From: a virus
Virus record (IMG/VR): IMGVR_UViG_3300032397_000003
Coordinates: 64,001-128,000 of that record
Length of the DNA stretch: 64,000 bases
Strand: one strand, 5' to 3'
The translations under genes were made by a program, and so were the position numbers. The stretch's first letter is position 1. Every line of letters begins with the position of its first letter. Shown in pieces: positions 9,908-43,269 of this stretch. A model generated the notes under the pieces. The model was not told the DNA's origin. It ran no database searches and saw only the letters and a program-made list of their open reading frames with translations.

Positions 9908-12520
9908 ATGACAGAATCTTTTCTAAAGAAAAGGGATAAGTGTGATTCTTGTCCACTTGAGATAGATATAAAAAAAGGTACTTTTATAAGAGCATCTAAA
10001 AAAAATGAAATTCAAGTTAAAAGTGATTTACAAGATTATTCTAATGTAGATTATCTTTTTCTTACTGATTGTATAGAGCAAGATAAAGATTTAGATAAAC
10101 TATATAATCTAATAAAAGTTAAAGGCATTAAAAACTTTGCTATTACATCTGCAATAGGGTGTAGAACAATAAGTTATGAAGTATCTACTCCTTTATATTC
10201 AACTTATAATTATTGTAAATCATTTGATATTAAAAAATTCAATCCAAAAGTTGTATTTACATTTGGTAAAGCAATTTATTATTTTACAAGAGGATCAGTA
10301 TTTTCCTCTTGGAGAGATTTTAGAGAATTTGTATTTAATGAAACATATTTTTATCCTCATATAAAAGAAGAATGGAAAGGTAGAATTTATCCTTGTTCAT
10401 TTATTCATGACTTATTTCAATTTGATACTTTTGAACATTTACATTTTACTAAGAATCTTGGGTTTGCTCAATTACATATTAACAATTATGTAAATGAAAA
10501 ATTTATTATGCCTGATTATAAAATAGAAAAAGTTTCCGATCTATCCTTATTTATAGATGAGCATAGAGATGAAAAGAAAGGGGCTTTTGATACAGAAACA
10601 AATAGTCTTAATGTATTTGTAGATGACTTTAAAATGGGGTGTATGCAGTGTTCCTTTGATGGAGTTAATGCTTATTATATACCATCATCTACAATAACAA
10701 ATAAAAGAAAACTTTCTATATGGCTTAATAATATATTTCAGATTTGGGCAAATGGGAAGTACGATTGCAAAGTATTGAATAGAAGTGGTATAAAAGGTTA
10801 TCATGTCGATGAAGATATACCCCTTATATTCCATATTATGAATACTGAAAGAGATTCAAATTCAATCAAAGTTCTATCTTGGTTCATTGGTTTTGGTGGA
10901 TATGAAGATGAACTTGATGAATATAAAAAGAAACACAAAATTAAAAACTATTTAGATATACCTGAAAATATAATGATAAATTATTCAGGATTAGATGCTA
11001 TAGTTACTTATAGATTGGATGAATTTTTACATAAATATTTAGTTCCAAGACAACAAGAAACATATAATTTATATAGAAATGATATAATACCGGTAATACC
11101 TGTATTCCAAGAAATAGAGGAGAATGGATTACTGGTTGATAAAGAGTATATAAAAAATTATCATAATGAATTAATGATTAAAAAAGAAATTGTTGAAAAA
11201 GAAATTTATGAATTAGCGGGTAAAAAATTTAATATAGGTTCTAATGATGAATTAGGTTTATTATTAAAAGAATCTGGTTTACCGAATTATGGTGTAACTA
11301 AAAAAGGTTTATATCAAACTAATGAGGAGATTTTATTAAAATGGAAAAAAGATGGTTTTAAAATAGTTGAAAAAATTCTAGAGTATAGGAAGATAACAAA
11401 ATTAGACTCCACTTATATAGGTAATAAAGACGAGGAAGCTGAATTTAATTTCTTCGATAATTCAAAGAAAGAAAAGGAAAGCGTAGGCTTATATCAATAT
11501 ATAATGTCAGATAATAAGGTGCATGGAAATATCATGCCGGCACTGACTGACTCAATCAGATCGTTATCGTTTCAGCCCAACCTACAAAATTTTCCGAAAA
11601 GGGGGGATGAAGGTAAAGCTTTTAGAAAAGTATTTATAGCTCCAGAAGATTATTATTTTTGTGAAGCAGACTATGCAGGATTTCAATTAAGACTTATGGG
11701 TATATATTCTAAAGATGAAACTATGATAGATGCTTTTATAAATCAGGGAGGAGATTTGCACTCCGTAACGGGATGCGAGGTATTTTCTCAAGGTACTGAA
11801 TTATCTTATTTTATGGAGCATAAAAAAGAGGATCCATACAAGACAGCAAGATTTAATGGGAAAGTTGTAAATCTATCTTTTGTTTTTATGGTTAGTCCAT
11901 TCTCTTTTCAAAATTCTATCAGAGAAGAATGGACACCTGAACAAATAGATGATTACATTAAAAAGAATAAATTAGAAATAATTAAAGACAGCAAAACAGG
12001 ATTTCAAAATAAAAATCTTACTATAGCCACTGATATACATAAAAAGTTTTTTATTAAGTATCCTAAACTACCTGAATATGCGGCTAATATGCAAAAGTTT
12101 GCAAGAGAAAATGGTTATGTAGATTGTCCTATATTTCCTGGATTAAGACGACATATACCTGAACTACTAAAACAAGGAAGTAATCTTAATAAAGAAAAAA
12201 TGTCACATTATTCAAATCTTAATAATATAACAGTGAATACTGGGGCACAGGGTGGAGAGGCTTTAATTATATATAGAGCTTTGATAAAAATACATAAAAA
12301 GATTAAAGAACTAAATCTTAAAAGTATGCTAGTTGGGTGCGTGCATGACTCAATTGTGCTGTACATACATAAAACTGAAACAGAGCAAATGTATTATATA
12401 CTAAAAGAAAGTATGGAAGTATTTGATTATAGTATTCCCATATTAGCTGAAGTTGAATATGGGGATATTTGGGGATTTGGTACTGAGGTAGATAAAAATA
12501 ATATTGGAGAATTCAAATGA
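9908..12520 (+). CDS. polA: Family A DNA polymerase with N-terminal UDG-like (Fe-S) domain and 3'-5' exonuclease
   Basis: CDSCPL/GCR/NPKVVFTFG N-domain; FDTET, NGKYD, YSGLD exonuclease motifs; PNLQN, ADYAGFQLR, DLH, RxxxKxxN, CVHDS polymerase motifs. Confidence 0.92.
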   Translation: MTESFLKKRDKCDSCPLEIDIKKGTFIRASKKNEIQVKSDLQDYSNVDYLFLTDCIEQDKDLDKLYNLIKVKGIKNFAITSAIGCRTISYEVSTPLYSTYNYCKSFDIKKFNPKVVFTFGKAIYYFTRGSVFSSWRDFREFVFNETYFYPHIKEEWKGRIYPCSFIHDLFQFDTFEHLHFTKNLGFAQLHINNYVNEKFIMPDYKIEKVSDLSLFIDEHRDEKKGAFDTETNSLNVFVDDFKMGCMQCSFDGVNAYYIPSSTITNKRKLSIWLNNIFQIWANGKYDCKVLNRSGIKGYHVDEDIPLIFHIMNTERDSNSIKVLSWFIGFGGYEDELDEYKKKHKIKNYLDIPENIMINYSGLDAIVTYRLDEFLHKYLVPRQQETYNLYRNDIIPVIPVFQEIEENGLLVDKEYIKNYHNELMIKKEIVEKEIYELAGKKFNIGSNDELGLLLKESGLPNYGVTKKGLYQTNEEILLKWKKDGFKIVEKILEYRKITKLDSTYIGNKDEEAEFNFFDNSKKEKESVGLYQYIMSDNKVHGNIMPALTDSIRSLSFQPNLQNFPKRGDEGKAFRKVFIAPEDYYFCEADYAGFQLRLMGIYSKDETMIDAFINQGGDLHSVTGCEVFSQGTELSYFMEHKKEDPYKTARFNGKVVNLSFVFMVSPFSFQNSIREEWTPEQIDDYIKKNKLEIIKDSKTGFQNKNLTIATDIHKKFFIKYPKLPEYAANMQKFARENGYVDCPIFPGLRRHIPELLKQGSNLNKEKMSHYSNLNNITVNTGAQGGEALIIYRALIKIHKKIKELNLKSMLVGCVHDSIVLYIHKTETEQMYYILKESMEVFDYSIPILAEVEYGDIWGFGTEVDKNNIGEFK

Positions 12521-12777
12521 ATGATTTTTTAAAAAGAAAACCACTGCATAATAGAAATGAAGAATGGAAAGAACACTGGCAAGACATGCCTGAATTTATA
12601 TGTAATGATTTAGGTCCACATTCTCAAATTATAATTTCATTTAAAACTAAAGAGGATAGAAAAGCTTTTTCTAAACTTATAAATCAACCAATATCAGAGA
12701 GAACAAAATCTTTATGGTATCCTAAAGAAGACATTGATTTTGTAGAACATTTGAGGTATGTCGATGATAAAAAATAA
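12517..12777 (+). CDS. Small partner protein of phage DNA-glycosyltransferase loci
   Basis: HWQDMPEF...F....I.Q.I..RTKSLWYP pattern, overlapping the downstream GT. Confidence 0.6.
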   Translation: MNDFLKRKPLHNRNEEWKEHWQDMPEFICNDLGPHSQIIISFKTKEDRKAFSKLINQPISERTKSLWYPKEDIDFVEHLRYVDDKK

Positions 12778-13651
12778 GCCTCAATTCCCTATATACCTAC
12801 CATCTAAAGGAAGACATGATATAAAAGGTTATACAAGTGATAATCTCAGTGAAATGGAAATACCTCATTATATTGTTATAGAAGAACAACAGTATGATCT
12901 ATACTATGAGAATCATAAGGATAATAAATTTGTTACTCTACTTATTCTTGATAAAAAATATCAAGATGAATATAACACTTTTGATGATTTAGGTAGTACC
13001 AAAAGCAAAGGACCAGGTGCGGCTAGAAATTTTGCATGGGATCATTCTATTAAAATGGGATTTGATTGGCATTGGGTAATGGATGATAATATTATGTCAT
13101 TTAAAATCTTTAATAATAATAGACAGATTAAAACTACATCCGGTGTAATGTTTAAAGCTATGGAAGATTTTTGTTTAAGATATAAGAATATAGGAATGGC
13201 TGGTCCTCAGTATTATATGTTTGTACCAAGAAAAGCTATATTACCTCCTTATGTAACTAATACTCGTATATACTCGTGTAATCTCATTAGGAATGATGTT
13301 CCATATAGATGGAGAGGTCGTTATAATGAAGATACAGATTTATCTTTATGTATGTTAAAAGATGGATGGTGTACAGTTCAATTTAATGCATTTCTGCAAG
13401 AAAAACTTACAACTCAAGTGCTTGGTGGCGGTAATACAGAAGCTTTCTATGCACATGAGGGTACTCTTCCTAAATCTCAAATGTTAAAAGATATGCATCC
13501 AGATGTAACAGAGGTAGTGTGGAAATTTAATAGATGGCATCATTATGTAGATTATGGTCCATTTAAGAAAGTTAAACTTATTTTTAAAGATGATTATATA
13601 GTTAAAGAGGGTATAAATAATTATGGTATGGCATTAAAACAAGTTAAATAA
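12758..13651 (+). CDS. TAGT/GREB1-like GT-A glycosyltransferase, putative DNA base modifier
   Basis: PIYLPSKGR, GPGAARNFAWDHS, WVMDDN, NTRIYSCNLI, RYNEDTDLSL, GGNT. Confidence 0.8.
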   Translation: MSMIKNKPQFPIYLPSKGRHDIKGYTSDNLSEMEIPHYIVIEEQQYDLYYENHKDNKFVTLLILDKKYQDEYNTFDDLGSTKSKGPGAARNFAWDHSIKMGFDWHWVMDDNIMSFKIFNNNRQIKTTSGVMFKAMEDFCLRYKNIGMAGPQYYMFVPRKAILPPYVTNTRIYSCNLIRNDVPYRWRGRYNEDTDLSLCMLKDGWCTVQFNAFLQEKLTTQVLGGGNTEAFYAHEGTLPKSQMLKDMHPDVTEVVWKFNRWHHYVDYGPFKKVKLIFKDDYIVKEGINNYGMALKQVK

Positions 13652-13759
13652 TTATCATTTTTACTAATACATAAAAATAATTTAATTTTAATGATTATTT
13701 CTATATATTATAGTTAAAGTTATGGATCAAATAGATATTAAACTAGTTGGAGATAAATT

Positions 13760-13984
13760 TTGAAAAAGAAGGAACCAAAGTCTTCAAGAAATACTAAGAA
13801 TCAAAAGTTATTATCACCAAAAGAATCTAAAGAACAGGTTCAAATTGAAAAAGAGGAAATTATTCAAGTTGAACTTAAAAGAAGTTATAATTGTAAATGT
13901 GGTTGTAAAGTAATTCTTGAGGGAGAAACATATAAAAGAAAAGTGAAAGATGGTTTTGAACTTTGTAGTGGCTGTTCTAAATAA
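13760..13984 (+). CDS. Small Zn-finger-like hypothetical protein
   Basis: CKCGC ... CSGC; follows a class-I promoter. Confidence 0.55.
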   Translation: MKKKEPKSSRNTKNQKLLSPKESKEQVQIEKEEIIQVELKRSYNCKCGCKVILEGETYKRKVKDGFELCSGCSK

Positions 13985-14143
13985 TTTTTAAAAAATAATA
14001 AAAAGTTGTTTACATTTTTTTACATACATTGCCAGAAAGATACACCCTCTTTAGAGGTGTGTATGAATGGCAAAAATAATGAATTTTTTTGATAAAAATA
14101 AAAAAAGTAGTGTACTTTTCTATAATATTGTAATATATTATAT

Positions 14144-14344
14144 ATGATAATACTAATAAACAAGAGGTTTAACATGGAATATGAAAAGATAATATTTAAT
14201 TTTCCAAAGCAATATAAAAGAAAACTTGAAAAAATAGTTTCTATGGGGAATGTAGAAAATGAAAAAAGCACAACTTTAAGTGGGTTAATTTCTGAAACTT
14301 TAATTAGGGAATTTGATTTAGAAAATGAAAAAACATCATTATAA
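14144..14344 (+). CDS. Ribbon-helix-helix-like protein inside the IS (start possibly 14174)
   Basis: IIFNFPKQYKRKLEKI...TLSGLISETL beta-helix-helix pattern; overlaps the tnpA start. Confidence 0.5.
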   Translation: MIILINKRFNMEYEKIIFNFPKQYKRKLEKIVSMGNVENEKSTTLSGLISETLIREFDLENEKTSL

Positions 14345-14723
14345 ATCTGATTGTAATTATCATCTTATTATATGTCCTAAATATAGACATAAGGTATTGC
14401 ATGATGAAGTCAAGAATTTTTTAAAGAATAAATTTAAAGAAATTTGTATTAATTATGATTATGAATTATTAGATTTTTCAATAGAAATAGACCATATTCA
14501 CTTTGCATTAAAATTACAACCAACGTATTCTATTGGTTCTGTTGTTAGAAATTTAAAATCAATAACTGGATATTATTTGTTTAAGGAATTTCCAGAATTA
14601 AGAAAGAAATATTTTTGGAATAGCGGATTTTGGACTCATGGTTATTTTGTTTCGACTGTCGGTCGAGTTTCAAAAGAAAAAATTATGGAATACATTAAGT
14701 CACAAGAAAATTATGATAACTAA
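14325..14723 (+). CDS. tnpA: IS200/IS605 Y1 HUH transposase
   Basis: YHLIICPKYR, DHIH (HUH), LKS, FWTHGYFVSTVG, YIKSQ catalytic Tyr. Confidence 0.95.
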   Translation: MKKHHYKSDCNYHLIICPKYRHKVLHDEVKNFLKNKFKEICINYDYELLDFSIEIDHIHFALKLQPTYSIGSVVRNLKSITGYYLFKEFPELRKKYFWNSGFWTHGYFVSTVGRVSKEKIMEYIKSQENYDN

Positions 14724-15957
14724 AAATCAACAAATAAAATATTCTCTTTCCGCTACAGGAGAAAAAAGAAAAACTCAAACTTGTAAAGTTTATGAATTAA
14801 AGCTTTGTGAAAACAAACTTAATAAAATACAAATTGATTTTTTGCATAGGATTTTCCTTGAGGCAAAATGGATATATAATGATATTTTAAGCTTTAATGA
14901 TTTAAAAAACTATGATTGCAAAAAGAAAGAATTAGAAATCCTAAATAAAGAGAAAGAAAAGGAAATAAGAGAATTAAAAGTTTTAGGTAGTCAAATTAAA
15001 CAAGAACTATTACAAAGAACCTGGGGCTCTATTAAATCTCTTTCTACTAAAAAGAAAAAGGGCAAAACAAAGCAAGTAGGTAGACTTAAATTTAAAAGTC
15101 AAATAAATTCAATTCCTTTAAAACAATATGGAATTACATATAAGTTTCAGAAAGGTAATTTAAAAATACAAAACTGTAAATCATTGTTTCAAATTAAAGG
15201 ATTAAAACAAATTCCTGAGAATGCTGAATTTGCAAATGCTAATTTAATTAGAAAACCTTCAGGCTATTATCTTAAAGTAACTTGCTTTCTTCCAATTGAA
15301 AGTAAAAATATAAGTAAAGAAATAGTTGGTATTGATTTTGGAATTAAAGATGATTTGGTTTTAAGCAATGGAATTAAATTTCAAACTAAATTTCCAACAT
15401 CTTTTCAAATTAAAAGAGAGCAAAGAAAATTATCTAAAAAGAAAAAAGGTAGTCATAATTATTGGAAACAAAAAAATAAAGTTGCATTAGCTTATGAAAA
15501 ACAGAATAATAAAAAACAAGATACAAAAAATAAAATCATAAGTTATTTAAAAAATAATTATTCTCATATAGCAATTCAAAATGAAAATATAAAAGGATGG
15601 CACGCAGGATTATTTGGAAAACAAGTACAACAATCAATTTTAGGTGGTATAATTTCGGAATTGAAGAAACTTCCGCAGACACATATTGTTGATAGATTTT
15701 TTCCAAGTACAAAACTTTGTCCTGAATGTGGTCAATTAAATATTTTAACATTAGCAGATAGAATGTACAATTGTTCTTGTGGTTATTCTCAGGATAGAGA
15801 TATTCATAGTGCAAAAAATATTCTTTTAGAAACAATACCTATGGAATATAGGAATTTTAAGCCTGTGGAGTTTAATACCTCTGCGATAGATTATTTAAAG
15901 TCTTTCGTAAGTGTGAACTATGAAGCAGGAAGATACAACTCTTTAGAGTTGTGTTAG
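14713..15957 (+). CDS. tnpB: RNA-guided endonuclease TnpB
   Basis: RuvC-I GIDFG; RuvC-II region IAIQNENIKGW; Zn finger STKLCPECG..CSCG; RuvC-III DRDIHSAKNI; ATG 14713 overlaps the tnpA end. Confidence 0.92.
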   Translation: MITKNQQIKYSLSATGEKRKTQTCKVYELKLCENKLNKIQIDFLHRIFLEAKWIYNDILSFNDLKNYDCKKKELEILNKEKEKEIRELKVLGSQIKQELLQRTWGSIKSLSTKKKKGKTKQVGRLKFKSQINSIPLKQYGITYKFQKGNLKIQNCKSLFQIKGLKQIPENAEFANANLIRKPSGYYLKVTCFLPIESKNISKEIVGIDFGIKDDLVLSNGIKFQTKFPTSFQIKREQRKLSKKKKGSHNYWKQKNKVALAYEKQNNKKQDTKNKIISYLKNNYSHIAIQNENIKGWHAGLFGKQVQQSILGGIISELKKLPQTHIVDRFFPSTKLCPECGQLNILTLADRMYNCSCGYSQDRDIHSAKNILLETIPMEYRNFKPVEFNTSAIDYLKSFVSVNYEAGRYNSLELC

Positions 15958-15994
15958 TTCACTAATAGAAATAATATAAAATTGAGGTAAATAA

Positions 15995-16186
15995 ATGAAA
16001 AGATATGCACCATTTAAGTTTAAAGAAGCAAATAAAAAAGATTTAAATGAACTTATAGGAGAACTTAAAGCTCAATATGGATCATTCAAGGATGTAAAGA
16101 AAGATAAAGACTTTAAAAAACTTTCAGATGGGGATCAAGAGTATGTACTTGATGAATTAAAAGCAGAAGGGACTTTTAAGGACTAA
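15995..16186 (+). CDS. Small protein with MKRY..E tag (putative virion-internal protein)
   Basis: GAGGT RBS; MKRYAPFKFKE. Confidence 0.65.
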   Translation: MKRYAPFKFKEANKKDLNELIGELKAQYGSFKDVKKDKDFKKLSDGDQEYVLDELKAEGTFKD

Positions 16187-16188
16187 TA

Positions 16189-16551
16189 ATGATGGTAGAA
16201 AGATATAAACAATTTTTTGAAGATTCTAAGTATATAGATTTCTCTAAAGATAGGGATTATATAGAATTATTAGGTAATCTTAAAGGAAAAGATTATTCTA
16301 TCACTATGCAATGGAGTGGTCCAAAACAAGGGTTTAATGTTGAATGTTCTATAGTTACATCTCAAGGAAGTGAATTTATATACGGTAAAAATTCTAATAT
16401 ACATGGTGGGAGTGTAGAGCAAACTTTAACACCCATCTTTATAAATATATTTAAAATATCCGTTCCTAAAATAGAAAATGGTGGATCTGGATTAGATGTT
16501 AATCATATGATTGAAACATTGATTAAAAAATATAAATTTAAAGTGAAATAA
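16189..16551 (+). CDS. Hypothetical protein with ERYK..FE tag
   Basis: MMVERYKQFFE N-terminus. Confidence 0.65.
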   Translation: MMVERYKQFFEDSKYIDFSKDRDYIELLGNLKGKDYSITMQWSGPKQGFNVECSIVTSQGSEFIYGKNSNIHGGSVEQTLTPIFINIFKISVPKIENGGSGLDVNHMIETLIKKYKFKVK

Positions 16552-16626
16552 TTTTTAATTCTCATCTAATTTTCTATATATTATAAAGGTAGATAAGAAA
16601 AAATAATTTAAACTAGGGGTTCTATA

Positions 16627-17427
16627 GTGAACATAATAAAATTAACAAAAGAGGAGATTAAAAAGTCAGCTCCAGCAGTATATGCAACTCAACCAAAGAA
16701 GTCTATGACAGATAGATATTCTTTTGTATCAACAGACAAAATAATTACAGGATTTAATCAAGCAGGTTGGGAAGTTACAAAAGCTTTTCAAAGTAAAACT
16801 AAGAAAGACGATATAGCAGAAAGAAAGCATGTAGTAAGATTATCTAATCCTGATTTTCAACCAATGATGAAAGAGGTAGGCTCACTTACACCAGAGATAA
16901 TTTTAATCAATTCCCACAACGGTACCTCGGCAGTGCGCATAGAACTGGGATTATTTAGACTCGTTTGCGGTAACGGATTAGTGATTGCCAACAGCAGATT
17001 TGCACAAGTAAAAAGAAGACACTTTGGAATAGATCAAGATGAAATATTCCAAGTAATATATGATGCTACAAATGAGTTTCAAGACGTTTGGGGAAAAATA
17101 GACGAGTATAAGTCTATTAAACTTACAAATGGACAAAGACTTGATTTTGCTTCTAAAGTAATAGAGGAAAATTGGGGAACAAGCTCAGTAATAACTCCAG
17201 ATGCTTTATTACTACCAAGGAGAACAGAAGATAAAAATGATGATCTTTTCTCTGTAATGAACGTTGTTCAGGAGAATGTTATCAAAGGAGGAGCTAACTA
17301 TTTACACCCTCATAGAAATACATTAAGAAGAACAAAAGCAATTAAAAATGCTGATAGGGATATAAAAGTAAATGCTCTTCTGTGGCAAATGATAGAATCT
17401 TTTAGATTATCAAAAAAATTCAGATAA
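16627..17427 (+). CDS. DUF932/DUF945-family protein
   Basis: RYSFVST, HVVRL, LINSHNGTS, GLFRLVCGNGL, NVVQENVIKGG. Confidence 0.85.
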   Translation: MNIIKLTKEEIKKSAPAVYATQPKKSMTDRYSFVSTDKIITGFNQAGWEVTKAFQSKTKKDDIAERKHVVRLSNPDFQPMMKEVGSLTPEIILINSHNGTSAVRIELGLFRLVCGNGLVIANSRFAQVKRRHFGIDQDEIFQVIYDATNEFQDVWGKIDEYKSIKLTNGQRLDFASKVIEENWGTSSVITPDALLLPRRTEDKNDDLFSVMNVVQENVIKGGANYLHPHRNTLRRTKAIKNADRDIKVNALLWQMIESFRLSKKFR

Positions 17428-17497
17428 CAGTTTAATTATCGATAAATTATCTATATATTATATGTATAGATAATTTGATATTTCAAGGAGATTTAAA

Positions 17498-18076
17498 ATG
17501 GTAAAAAGGTATAAAAGAATAGAATCACAATTTATGGAAACTTTTGTTAGAGATTTATGGAAGTCTTTAATAAATTTGTCAAATATCTTAAAAAAACTAG
17601 ATATAAATTTTACAGTGATTGGGGGAGCTGCTAGAAATCAATATGGAGCAATAAAAATCACGGAGGATATAGATATACTTGTTGATATAAAGGATAAGGA
17701 TAAGATGTTACATCTTCCTATTGGTTTTATAAGAGAACTTTCTAATGGAAGAGGTAAAGTATATACTTTACATGATCCTAAAACTAAGATAGAAGTAATA
17801 TATACTGGGGAGGAAGCTGGAAGAGAGGGTAGTGATGTACCATATATAAATCCTAAAAAGATTTCAAATAATATTAAAAATATTCCCTTTTTAACTTTAG
17901 AAAACTTAATAAGATATAAACTTGCCTCTGGTCTTTATGGTAAAGGTAGGCTAAAGGATTTTGCTGATATCCAGTTTCTGATCGAAATGAATGATCTTGA
18001 AAGAAATTATGCAGATTCTTTTAGAAAGGATTTAAAAAATAAATATATTGAAATATGGATTGACACAATGGAATAG
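17498..18076 (+). CDS. Nucleotidyltransferase (Pol-beta superfamily, DUF6036/AbiEii-like)
   Basis: VIGGAA..YG....TEDIDILV, LENLIRYK, R.KDFADI; MVKRYKR tag. Confidence 0.75.
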   Translation: MVKRYKRIESQFMETFVRDLWKSLINLSNILKKLDINFTVIGGAARNQYGAIKITEDIDILVDIKDKDKMLHLPIGFIRELSNGRGKVYTLHDPKTKIEVIYTGEEAGREGSDVPYINPKKISNNIKNIPFLTLENLIRYKLASGLYGKGRLKDFADIQFLIEMNDLERNYADSFRKDLKNKYIEIWIDTME

Positions 18077-42681: not shown

Positions 42682-43269
42682 CTAGCTTCCATTACAGACG
42701 ATTAGTATGTCTGTAAATTTTGAATCAGTAGGAAGAAGGTTGACGAGTTTGTATTTATTCCACTTCCAACTGTTTAAATCATAATCATAAATCAATCTAC
42801 TAGAACTTATAGAAGGTTTTTTAATTGTTACAAATTCTAATAGATTATCTTCTATATATAGTACTTCTTCATATTCAAAACTATTAGTGCTAAATTTTGT
42901 ATTAAGAAATAATGATAAGGCATCTGTTGTTCCTTCGTTTGGAATTGAGTATACAACTTCAATTTCAGTTATTCTATTTTCATAATCAGGAATTATATTT
43001 AACGCTTGTATAGTCACTTCAGGGGAGAATTCATTCATTAAAGCTGTCATCAATCTCATTTTTAAAGTCATAAAGTTTTCTGGATTTAATGTCTTAAAAG
43101 CAAAATTATCTAATGCCCCTCCTGCAAAAGGATTCATTAAGTATTCTCCTCTCTTGGAGTTTATCCATTGGTTCATTGCATTCTTAATAGCACTGGCTGC
43201 ATAATAAGTTACAGGTGTACCATCTTTATTATCCCTACTGTATAAATCTATATCTTGGTAAGTTGACAT
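42682..43269 (-). CDS. Baseplate wedge gp25-like protein
   Basis: AIKNAMNQWINSKRGEYLMNPFAGG. Confidence 0.8.
   Translation of the reverse strand: MSTYQDIDLYSRDNKDGTPVTYYAASAIKNAMNQWINSKRGEYLMNPFAGGALDNFAFKTLNPENFMTLKMRLMTALMNEFSPEVTIQALNIIPDYENRITEIEVVYSIPNEGTTDALSLFLNTKFSTNSFEYEEVLYIEDNLLEFVTIKKPSISSSRLIYDYDLNSWKWNKYKLVNLLPTDSKFTDILIVCNGS

Follow-up and report, generated by a model that had tools for sequence, protein, structure and literature searches.

An insertion sequence (IS) of the IS200/IS605 family lies on the plus strand of a phage genome (14024..15962; 1,939 bp) and interrupts a promoter-like box, TACTAATA, upstream of a gene for a 63-amino acid (aa) protein. The stretch analyzed here, termed the window, comprises bases 64001-128000 (64,000 nucleotides) of the 155,573-bp IMG/VR virus record IMGVR_UViG_3300032397_000003, which carries direct terminal repeats; the element is the sole copy in this 155.6-kb genome. 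We consider it very probable that this is an ordinary selfish insertion at a TTAC target, complete and probably active, and not an evolved switch. The lineage to which it belongs circulates in AT-rich myoviruses known from sediment and freshwater metagenomes and has moved between phage loci. Current understanding is not overturned by this. The value of the case is that it is a clean natural one, in which the TTAC target of the transposase TnpA overlaps the main promoter box of a phage, and an insertion of such kind would edit a promoter and make the guide of the nuclease TnpB begin with the promoter core. For a group of uncultured phages it further defines a promoter-like motif, and it adds a lineage of IS605 elements carried by phages, in which full-length copies occur alongside tnpA-less, mini and solo-hairpin derivatives.

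Anatomy, boundaries and target of the element

The element is composed of a left-end hairpin, a 56-aa open reading frame (ORF), tnpA, tnpB, an omegaRNA-like 3' region and a right-end hairpin, in this order; the imperfect hairpins are subterminal and terminal inverted repeats are absent. The tnpA gene (14325..14723, plus strand) codes for a Y1 HUH transposase of 132 aa (Pfam Y1_Tnp, E 2e-39, 135 bits), and alignment to the TnpA structures of ISDra2 and IS608 (2XM3, 2VJV) reveals that the HUH motif (DHIH) and the C-terminal tyrosine (MEYIKSQ) are kept. The tnpB gene (14713..15957, plus strand) codes for an RNA-guided nuclease of 414 aa with OrfB_IS605 and Cas12f1-like_TNB domains, and the same start is called in the copy L105 (other contigs and the copies on them are cited by L numbers, metagenome runs by X numbers). 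Aligned to ISDra2 TnpB (8EXA), it retains the positions of the RuvC D/E/D triad (IDFG, QNE, DRD), and it also possesses a cysteine cluster (CPEC...CSC). These domains, together with the boundaries described below, bear out the first-pass annotation of the locus as an IS605/TnpB element. Judged from its sequence, the element is complete and apparently working, i.e. probably active.

The accessory 56-aa ORF (14174..14344, plus strand) is conserved and overlaps the start of tnpA. Its relatives fall into 16 protein clusters, all of them metagenomic, with 61-100% identity, and neither Pfam nor PHROG gave a match. The AlphaFold2 (AF2) model consists of three helices (predicted local distance difference test score, pLDDT, 83), for which Foldseek returned no match in the PDB. 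We had considered a ribbon-helix-helix protein; this candidate was dropped, as there was no Pfam match even at E 5 and no PDB match for the three-helix model.

At the left end (14029..14073, plus strand) an outer stem formed by 14029-14034 with 14068-14073 brackets the tetranucleotide AAAG (14036-14039) and the TnpA-type hairpin (14040-14064). Folded as DNA, this end reaches -10.4 kcal/mol (z -3.8), and in L105 and L100 covariation is seen for both the hairpin and the outer stem. A leader of 110 nt separates the left end from the 56-aa ORF. At the right end (plus strand), GAAG (15929-15932) stands directly 5' of the hairpin (~15933-15954), followed by the cleavage site TCAC (15959-15962). AAAG, GAAG, the TCAC end and the right flank were thus all verified as they had been read at first. 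In L100 (2354-2420) we observed an extended left outer stem that pairs with the flanking TTTAC (DNA fold -21.5 kcal/mol, z -10); there the target would be sequestered in a long hairpin.

Both boundaries were set by comparing copies. Homologous sequence in nine other viral contigs breaks off exactly at ...TAGTTCAC, with differing sequence beyond this point in each, which sets the right boundary. For the left boundary we relied on protein-anchored searches, which yielded seven further diverged copies (L098, L099, L100/L090, L102, L103, L104, L105) with 76-98% identity to the copy in the window. The exact left-end pattern had not been found in IMG/VR because the left end is too variable. Each of these copies has ...TTAC 11-13 nt before AAAG and unrelated DNA further upstream, so that the tally of TTAC left flanks now stands at eight diverged copies from at least seven separate sites; a junction on a metagenome contig, ...GAAAAATTTTAC at 14023/14024, is the L104 site again. 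Two TTAC copies had been offered as the left target in the window, 14020-14023 and 14010-14013. The spacing of 12 nt between TTAC and AAAG identifies the former (14020..14023, plus strand) as the target copy, and it also forms the predicted transposon-adjacent motif (TAM) of TnpB. The insertion took place 3' of this fixed TTAC without target-site duplication, and the right flanks of the copies are unrelated to each other.

In IS608 the tetranucleotide 5' of each hairpin reportedly specifies the cleavage site, as Barabas et al. are said to have described in 2008. The pairs AAAG:TTAC and GAAG:TCAC appear to agree with this rule, as the first-pass annotation had proposed. In the mini-elements L086, L088 and L089, AAAA replaces AAAG and TTAT replaces TTAC with unchanged spacing, and this joint variation is the covariation expected from the IS608 guide rule.

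The promoter-like box and the interrupted site

The box TACTAATA occurs in the overall form (T/A)TACTAATA, and about half of its copies contain TTAC, i.e. read TTACTAATA. Its raw count in the window is unremarkable (14 versus 9.1 expected). In the whole genome, 28 out of 44 copies are intergenic (intergenic DNA makes up 6.5% of the genome), and 26 out of 44 are located 8-60 nt upstream of a gene start on the same strand, compared to 3.9% of all positions. An unbiased scan for 7-mers upstream of genes ranked TACTAAT first (9.7-fold, 39 genes) and ACTAATA second, and both outrank Shine-Dalgarno words. The motif is a single AT-rich box of 8 bp situated 13-37 nt before start codons. The first T is strongly preferred: variants with another base at this position were found upstream of genes in 4 out of 31 cases (the insertion junction left out) versus 26 out of 44 for the form with T. 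A further 7-mer with enrichment in front of genes, CTATATA (4.7-fold, 29 genes), may mark a second promoter class.

The box directly precedes the genes for tail sheath and tape measure, the gene intervening between hub and wedge, other genes of the tail module and an OMPLA-like gene. It also precedes several small ORFs in the replication module; it is not found directly before the polymerase, helicase or clamp-loader genes. Among the ten box-following genes in the first 40 kb, PHROG gave a single weak match, to a family of unknown function. We therefore regard the label of a late-type promoter box as reasonable, and lateness itself as plausible from the tail genes. The first-pass annotation had called the motif late outright; the promoter-like box before tail genes proved to be real, and its timing stays at this plausible level. 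The flank had also been likened to the promoter of gp25; the gene in question (42682-43269) is identified as such by its position only (hub/wedge), with no Pfam support.

A comparison with T4-type late promoters, which consist of a -10-like box without a -35 element, gives a mixed picture. The box resembles them in being single, in the short distance to start codons and in its position before tail genes. In contrast, the T4 box TATAAATA is not enriched upstream of genes here (8 out of 77 copies intergenic), and this phage has a family A polymerase; a profile search of the genome for sigma70-type domains detected neither Sigma70_r2 nor Sigma70_r4. An early class of the sigma70-like form TTACA-N16-18-TATAWT was not enriched (seven matches in the genome, none upstream of a gene), and a generic sigma70 scan of the region gave no more matches than shuffled sequence. 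A full-text literature search for TACTAATA retrieved no promoter literature among the papers listed.

If the flanks of the element are joined, they read ...CATTTTTTTAC followed by TAATAGAAATAATATAAAATTGAGG...ATG and give TTAC/TAATAG (the slash denoting the junction), which rebuilds TTACTAATAG as the first-pass annotation had noted. The ATG is that of the 63-aa gene (15995..16186, plus strand; N-terminus MKRY...), which has homologues in L004/L003, L092 and L095. The related phage L004/L003 has a single, uninterrupted intergenic stretch, ...TAATTTTTATACTAATAATTAAAAATA...ATG, before its homologous 63-aa gene; the joined flanks align to it over the whole of the junction region, and the junction falls within the TACTAATA of this relative. 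Taken from this alignment, there is good evidence that the box stood at the site before the insertion, with TTAC as the 5' part of the split TTACTAATA. The donor joint 14023/15963 is predicted to read ...TTTTTTTAC followed by TAATAGAAAT....

The IS end and the right flank together form a junction box, CACTAATA (15960..15967, plus strand), which keeps 7 out of 8 positions of the promoter box, in agreement with the near-copy noticed at first; the ATG at 15995 follows 27 nt after it. This box is probably weakened, because boxes without the first T are rarely located upstream of genes. Approximately 350 nt upstream of the insertion an intact TTACTAATA box (13661..13669, plus strand) is a possible source of read-through. 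Since boxes are present at 13662 and, within the element, at 14151, and since no terminator-like site was found on the plus strand of window 13500-16700, read-through into gene 15995 is likely. As a side observation, the reconstructed empty site (14009-14014 with 15972-15977) contains TTTACA 18 nt before TAATAT, a sigma70-like pair split by the insertion, which may be AT-rich chance. The 63-aa gene and its neighbor (window 15995-16551) start with MKRYAPFKF... and MMVERYKQFF..., and the homologues in L092 and L004 with MKRYTPHKF and MKRYKPYKF.

How often should such an insertion hit a box? TTAC sites lie within TTACTAATA in 24 out of 1,756 cases genome-wide (1.4%) and in 15 out of 119 cases in intergenic DNA (12.6%). 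None of the other insertion sites of the lineage, at least 14 in number, has a TAATA right flank. One in approximately 15 sites is what is expected from target choice and survival in non-coding DNA, and we therefore read the event as coincidental.

Several points weigh against this reading or limit it. The only uninterrupted ortholog, L004, does possess an uninterrupted TACTAATA at the orthologous place; however, it reads ATAC/TAATAA and not TTAC/TAATAG, and its upstream gene is a different one, so that our pre-insertion sequence is a reconstruction. The 63-aa gene homologues in L092 and L095 have no TACTAATA upstream, and a promoter at this spot is thus not universal. The exact 27-nt pattern of the empty site was not found in IMG/VR. 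In runs X6-X9, which contain part of the stretch, no contig joins 14023 to 15963; as rare variants are lost from Logan contigs such as these, this result does not show the empty allele to be absent. With neither an empty allele nor an excision junction seen, activity in this genome is unproven. We infer the TAM, the guide with its length, the omegaRNA ends, cleavage and expression. Finally, the conserved TACTAATA inside the element hints at more adaptation to phages than an ordinary selfish insertion would call for.

This internal box (14151..14158, plus strand) lies 15 nt before the ATG of the small ORF in the window and 15-21 nt before it among the copies, and could serve the IS genes as a promoter and be a source of read-through. 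Out of 8 diverged copies, 6 have it unchanged while its neighbors vary. From 18 non-promoter copies per 311,146 strand positions, the chance of one copy in a leader of 150 nt is approximately 1%. By this evidence the IS seems to rely on the very transcription signal that its phage hosts employ. If the internal box is indeed a phage-type promoter, the transposon would be tuned to the transcription program of the virus. Upstream of it, the block ATATTATTGTAATA (window 14120-14140, present in all 8 copies) is the best-conserved part of the leader and a candidate promoter or protein-binding site. The leader (14084-14172) also resembles an intergenic part of the genome (141290-141374; L002 1501-1585) with 74% identity over 85 nt (E 1.4e-4), a likeness that may be due to chance in AT-rich DNA, to a relic or to a promoter region common to both.

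Guide RNA region, proposed course of events and alternatives

A predicted omegaRNA scaffold is formed by the 3' end of tnpB and the right end (15835..15962, plus strand). The fold of the last ~130 nt is conserved in four other copies, with 40 pairs, 4 of which show compensatory changes, and an omegaRNA-like fold is retained in the gene-less mini-element L089; both are as expected of an omegaRNA scaffold. Within it lies a RAGATH-18-like core: the Rfam family RF03064 (RAGATH-18) matches window 15862-15931 with 33.4 bits, below the gathering score of 44.9. Three copies match this model over its full length (positions 1-71 of 71), namely window 15862-15931, L105 4692-4761 and L098 3245-3314, with 32-35 bits and thus all below the gathering score; at gathering thresholds Rfam reported nothing in the window. 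RAGATH-18 has been reported only with IS607 TnpB, outside of coding sequence and with G-rich TAMs (PMC11061315). The terminal helix and the conserved CCUGUGGAGU...AUGAAGCAGGAA core of the IS607 right-end element RNA are matched here; unlike there, the match is sub-threshold and sits inside the 3' coding region of tnpB in an IS605-type element with Y1 TnpA. This is a hint that guide scaffolds of the RAGATH-18 type are perhaps not confined to IS607 elements.

According to the family rule the guide consists of the 16-20 nt that directly follow the right end (Meers et al. 2023, PMC10055086), which makes the right flank TAATAGAAATAATATAAAAT (15963..15982, plus strand) the predicted guide. The genome contains this sequence a single time, at the junction itself, where TCAC takes the TAM position. 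Any other TTAC site differs from the guide at 3 or more of its first 12 nt and at 4 or more of 16 nt. By the mechanism of the family, the targets of TnpB would be confined to the restored donor joint and to an identical sibling lacking the IS (PMC10055086), and this limitation argues against a free-running switch and against the cutting of other promoters. The first-pass annotation had pointed out that TAM plus seed coincide with the late motifs of the phage. This coincidence is true; it follows automatically from the insertion site, and beyond TAATA the guide meets no other TTAC site with fewer than 3 mismatches in 12 nt or 4 in 16 nt.

The following course of events would account for the locus. 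A Y1 TnpA would have inserted the single-stranded element 3' of TTAC, the target being chosen by the AAAG beside the left hairpin. A 2-kb insertion would be tolerated almost solely in intergenic DNA, and with TTAC in about half of the boxes, one insertion may have settled in the box before the 63-aa gene, converting TTACTAATAG to TCACTAATAG. The omegaRNA from the tnpB 3' end and the right end would then read into the flank and obtain the guide TAATAGAAATAATATA.... With the TAM TTAC, TnpB could cut the scarless excision product or, during co-infection, an IS-free sibling genome, and recombination with IS-bearing copies would restore the element, leading to retention and homing instead of switching. 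Scarless excision and cleavage of the donor joint by TnpB have been established for the family (PMC10055086). The 63-aa gene is probably still expressed, either via the weakened CACTAATA or by read-through from the boxes at 13662 and 14151.

This is in agreement with what is known of IS605-family elements in Geobacillus (Meers et al. 2023, PMC10055086), where the TAM equals the TnpA target and the guide is the flank 3' of the right end, a correspondence which by analogy may hold here, and where gene-less derivatives similar to palindrome-associated transposable elements (PATEs) keep the ends and the omegaRNA, as L089 does. The system differs in that a replicating pool of phage genomes, known by its sequences, takes the place of the bacterium, and that the outcome would be homing between co-infecting genomes.

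A stronger role for the internal box would be a lineage adapted to phages, whose own box puts ORF, tnpA and tnpB on the late program and whose TCAC end rebuilds 7 out of 8 positions of any TTACTAATA it has entered. We entertain this possibility tentatively and hold it for rather doubtful. If true, transposase, nuclease and guide RNA would be made when many replicating genomes rich in single strands are present, an insertion into a box would cost little, and the element could spread between co-infecting phages as an RNA-guided homing drive.

One step further, boxes could act as a safe harbor, in that the lineage systematically targets TTAC within late-promoter boxes and its TCAC end evolved for the purpose of rebuilding the box. 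That TCAC differs from TTAC by one base, so that function downstream of the target is nearly preserved, would fit, as would the box carried by the IS itself. We nevertheless deem it improbable, as merely one of at least 15 insertion sites of the lineage has a TAATA context, a rate lying within the 1.4-12.6% expected from TTAC alone.

The idea put forward in the first-pass annotation was that the promoter of gene 15995 is kept off or weak by the IS until a regulated, precise excision restores TTACTAATAG and turns the gene on. Members of this family excise without a scar (PMC10055086), so that the box would be rebuilt exactly, including the strongly preferred T at its first position. The proposal is not supported, and we think it a little less credible still than targeted insertion into boxes: the intact triad of TnpB predicts cutting of the restored site, no empty allele turned up in the contigs of four metagenome runs or in IMG/VR, and with two TACTAATA boxes upstream and no plus-strand terminator the gene is unlikely to be off. 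In addition, the homologues in L092 and L095 do without a promoter of their own, and the other IS copies reside in unrelated contexts.

A function of TnpB and omegaRNA as an RNA-guided promoter binder, similar to TldR-type transcription factors and modulating late transcription at TTACTAATA boxes genome-wide, is very improbable. It is true that 24 TTACTAATA sites share the TAM and the first five guide bases, and that chromatin immunoprecipitation sequencing (ChIP-seq) showed weak seed requirements for transient TnpB binding (PMC10055086). However, TldR proteins are described as nuclease-dead (PMC10705468), whereas the TnpB studied here keeps all three RuvC catalytic positions; because of this intact triad a TldR-like regulator role appears unlikely. 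Moreover, the guide fits other boxes no better than with 3 mismatches in 12 nt, and it is the flank of whatever site the IS occupies, as at every other copy. Least of all do we credit a repeat misassembly that joined IS and phage, which the repetitiveness of the IS family in these metagenomes with its many variant contigs might suggest, for a contig of run X8 spans the left junction (13561-14057) without mismatch, five runs from different samples contain 92-99% of the sampled words of window 12000-18000, and in L004 the flanks match a single unbroken intergenic region.

Relatives, derivatives and the phage genome

Compared to IS608 (ISHp608, Helicobacter pylori) and ISDra2 (Deinococcus radiodurans), the selfish insertion favored here has the same general plan: tnpA (Y1 HUH) and tnpB in the same orientation, subterminal hairpins instead of inverted repeats and no target duplication. 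It would share with IS608 the AAAG guide with a TTAC target, and its TnpB aligns with the structures of ISDra2 TnpB with a conserved triad. Differences concern the right end (GAAG/TCAC here, not GAAT/TCAA), the extra 56-aa ORF before tnpA, the outer stem around the left guide and the internal TACTAATA, as well as the residence in phage genomes, the nearest relative in a bacterial genome being 49% identical. This relative is the single one obtained for TnpB from 185,579 bacterial and archaeal species genomes with a pattern search tuned to close relatives, and it belongs to a Babeliales metagenome-assembled genome; being a lone copy of such low identity, it gives no host clue.

The lineage seems, as far as the contigs reveal, to be phage-borne and to reside at different loci in several related phages. 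L100, a contig of 147.5 kb with weak homology to the phage, bears the IS at yet another locus. In L004 a tnpB copy with 89.5% identity lies ~1 kb from the orthologous site, which is empty. That copy (L004 8856-10189; the same phage as L003, L085 and L091) comprises tnpB and the right end, only the last ~40 nt of tnpA and no left end. The gene that it splits is the homologue of window gene 16627-17427 (phrog_12094) and lacks ~360 nt.

IS200/IS605 elements at different sites in large virulent-type phages are already known: ISCaje1-4 occupy differing loci in the related virulent Campylobacter myoviruses CP220 and CPt10 (PMC2853527). The parallels include the large virulent-type myoviruses, isoforms at different loci and the coexistence of tnpB-only and tnpA+tnpB forms. 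ISCaje1-4 differ in forming an unrelated lineage, for which neither insertion into a promoter box nor an internal promoter box was reported there (PMC2853527). What is new in the present case is the conserved TACTAATA inside the IS, the apparently phage-borne lineage and the RAGATH-18-like guide-RNA region.

A number of reduced forms accompany the full-length copies. Solo hairpin elements of ~47 nt have the left-end guide and hairpin fused directly to the tail TAGTTCAC; they were encountered as window 14024-14062 joined to the tail in runs X6 and X8 and in L086 (~12485-12537) and L088 (~2412-2464), the latter two with the guide AAAA and the flank TTAT. The form in X6 and X8, with a depth of 66.9 in X8, shares its flanks with the full-length L104 and resembles a deletion between two similar hairpins. 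L089 (1500-1867) is a gene-less, PATE-like mini-element of ~360 bp with an AAAA-guide left hairpin, an omegaRNA-like region and a right end. Derivatives lacking tnpA, in which the leader or a truncated small ORF is joined to the 3' end of tnpA and to tnpB, are present in metagenomes (L103 2327-3009; joint 14077 to 14673). The right flank of L104 resembles the left flank of L103, and these two copies may be neighbors at one locus, a few dozen bases from each other.

The phage genome has 29% G+C and is ~93% coding. Besides the family A DNA polymerase, which shares at best 23-27% identity with that of any GenBank phage, it encodes NrdD, a DnaB-like helicase and a clamp loader, and the tail module with sheath, tape measure, baseplate wedge and hub is that of a myovirus. 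DNA nearly identical to the phage is present in many samples of sediment metagenomes, and none of the runs containing the stretch is an RNA run; a megablast search of GenBank phages with window 12000-18000 returned no match. Directly upstream of the region, window gene 12758-13651 matches phrog_842 (E 7e-48), annotated as beta-glucosyl-HMC-alpha-glucosyltransferase; IMG/VR contains at least 270 relatives. Should cytosines be modified in this phage, the TTAC on which TnpA and TnpB have to act would be modified as well.

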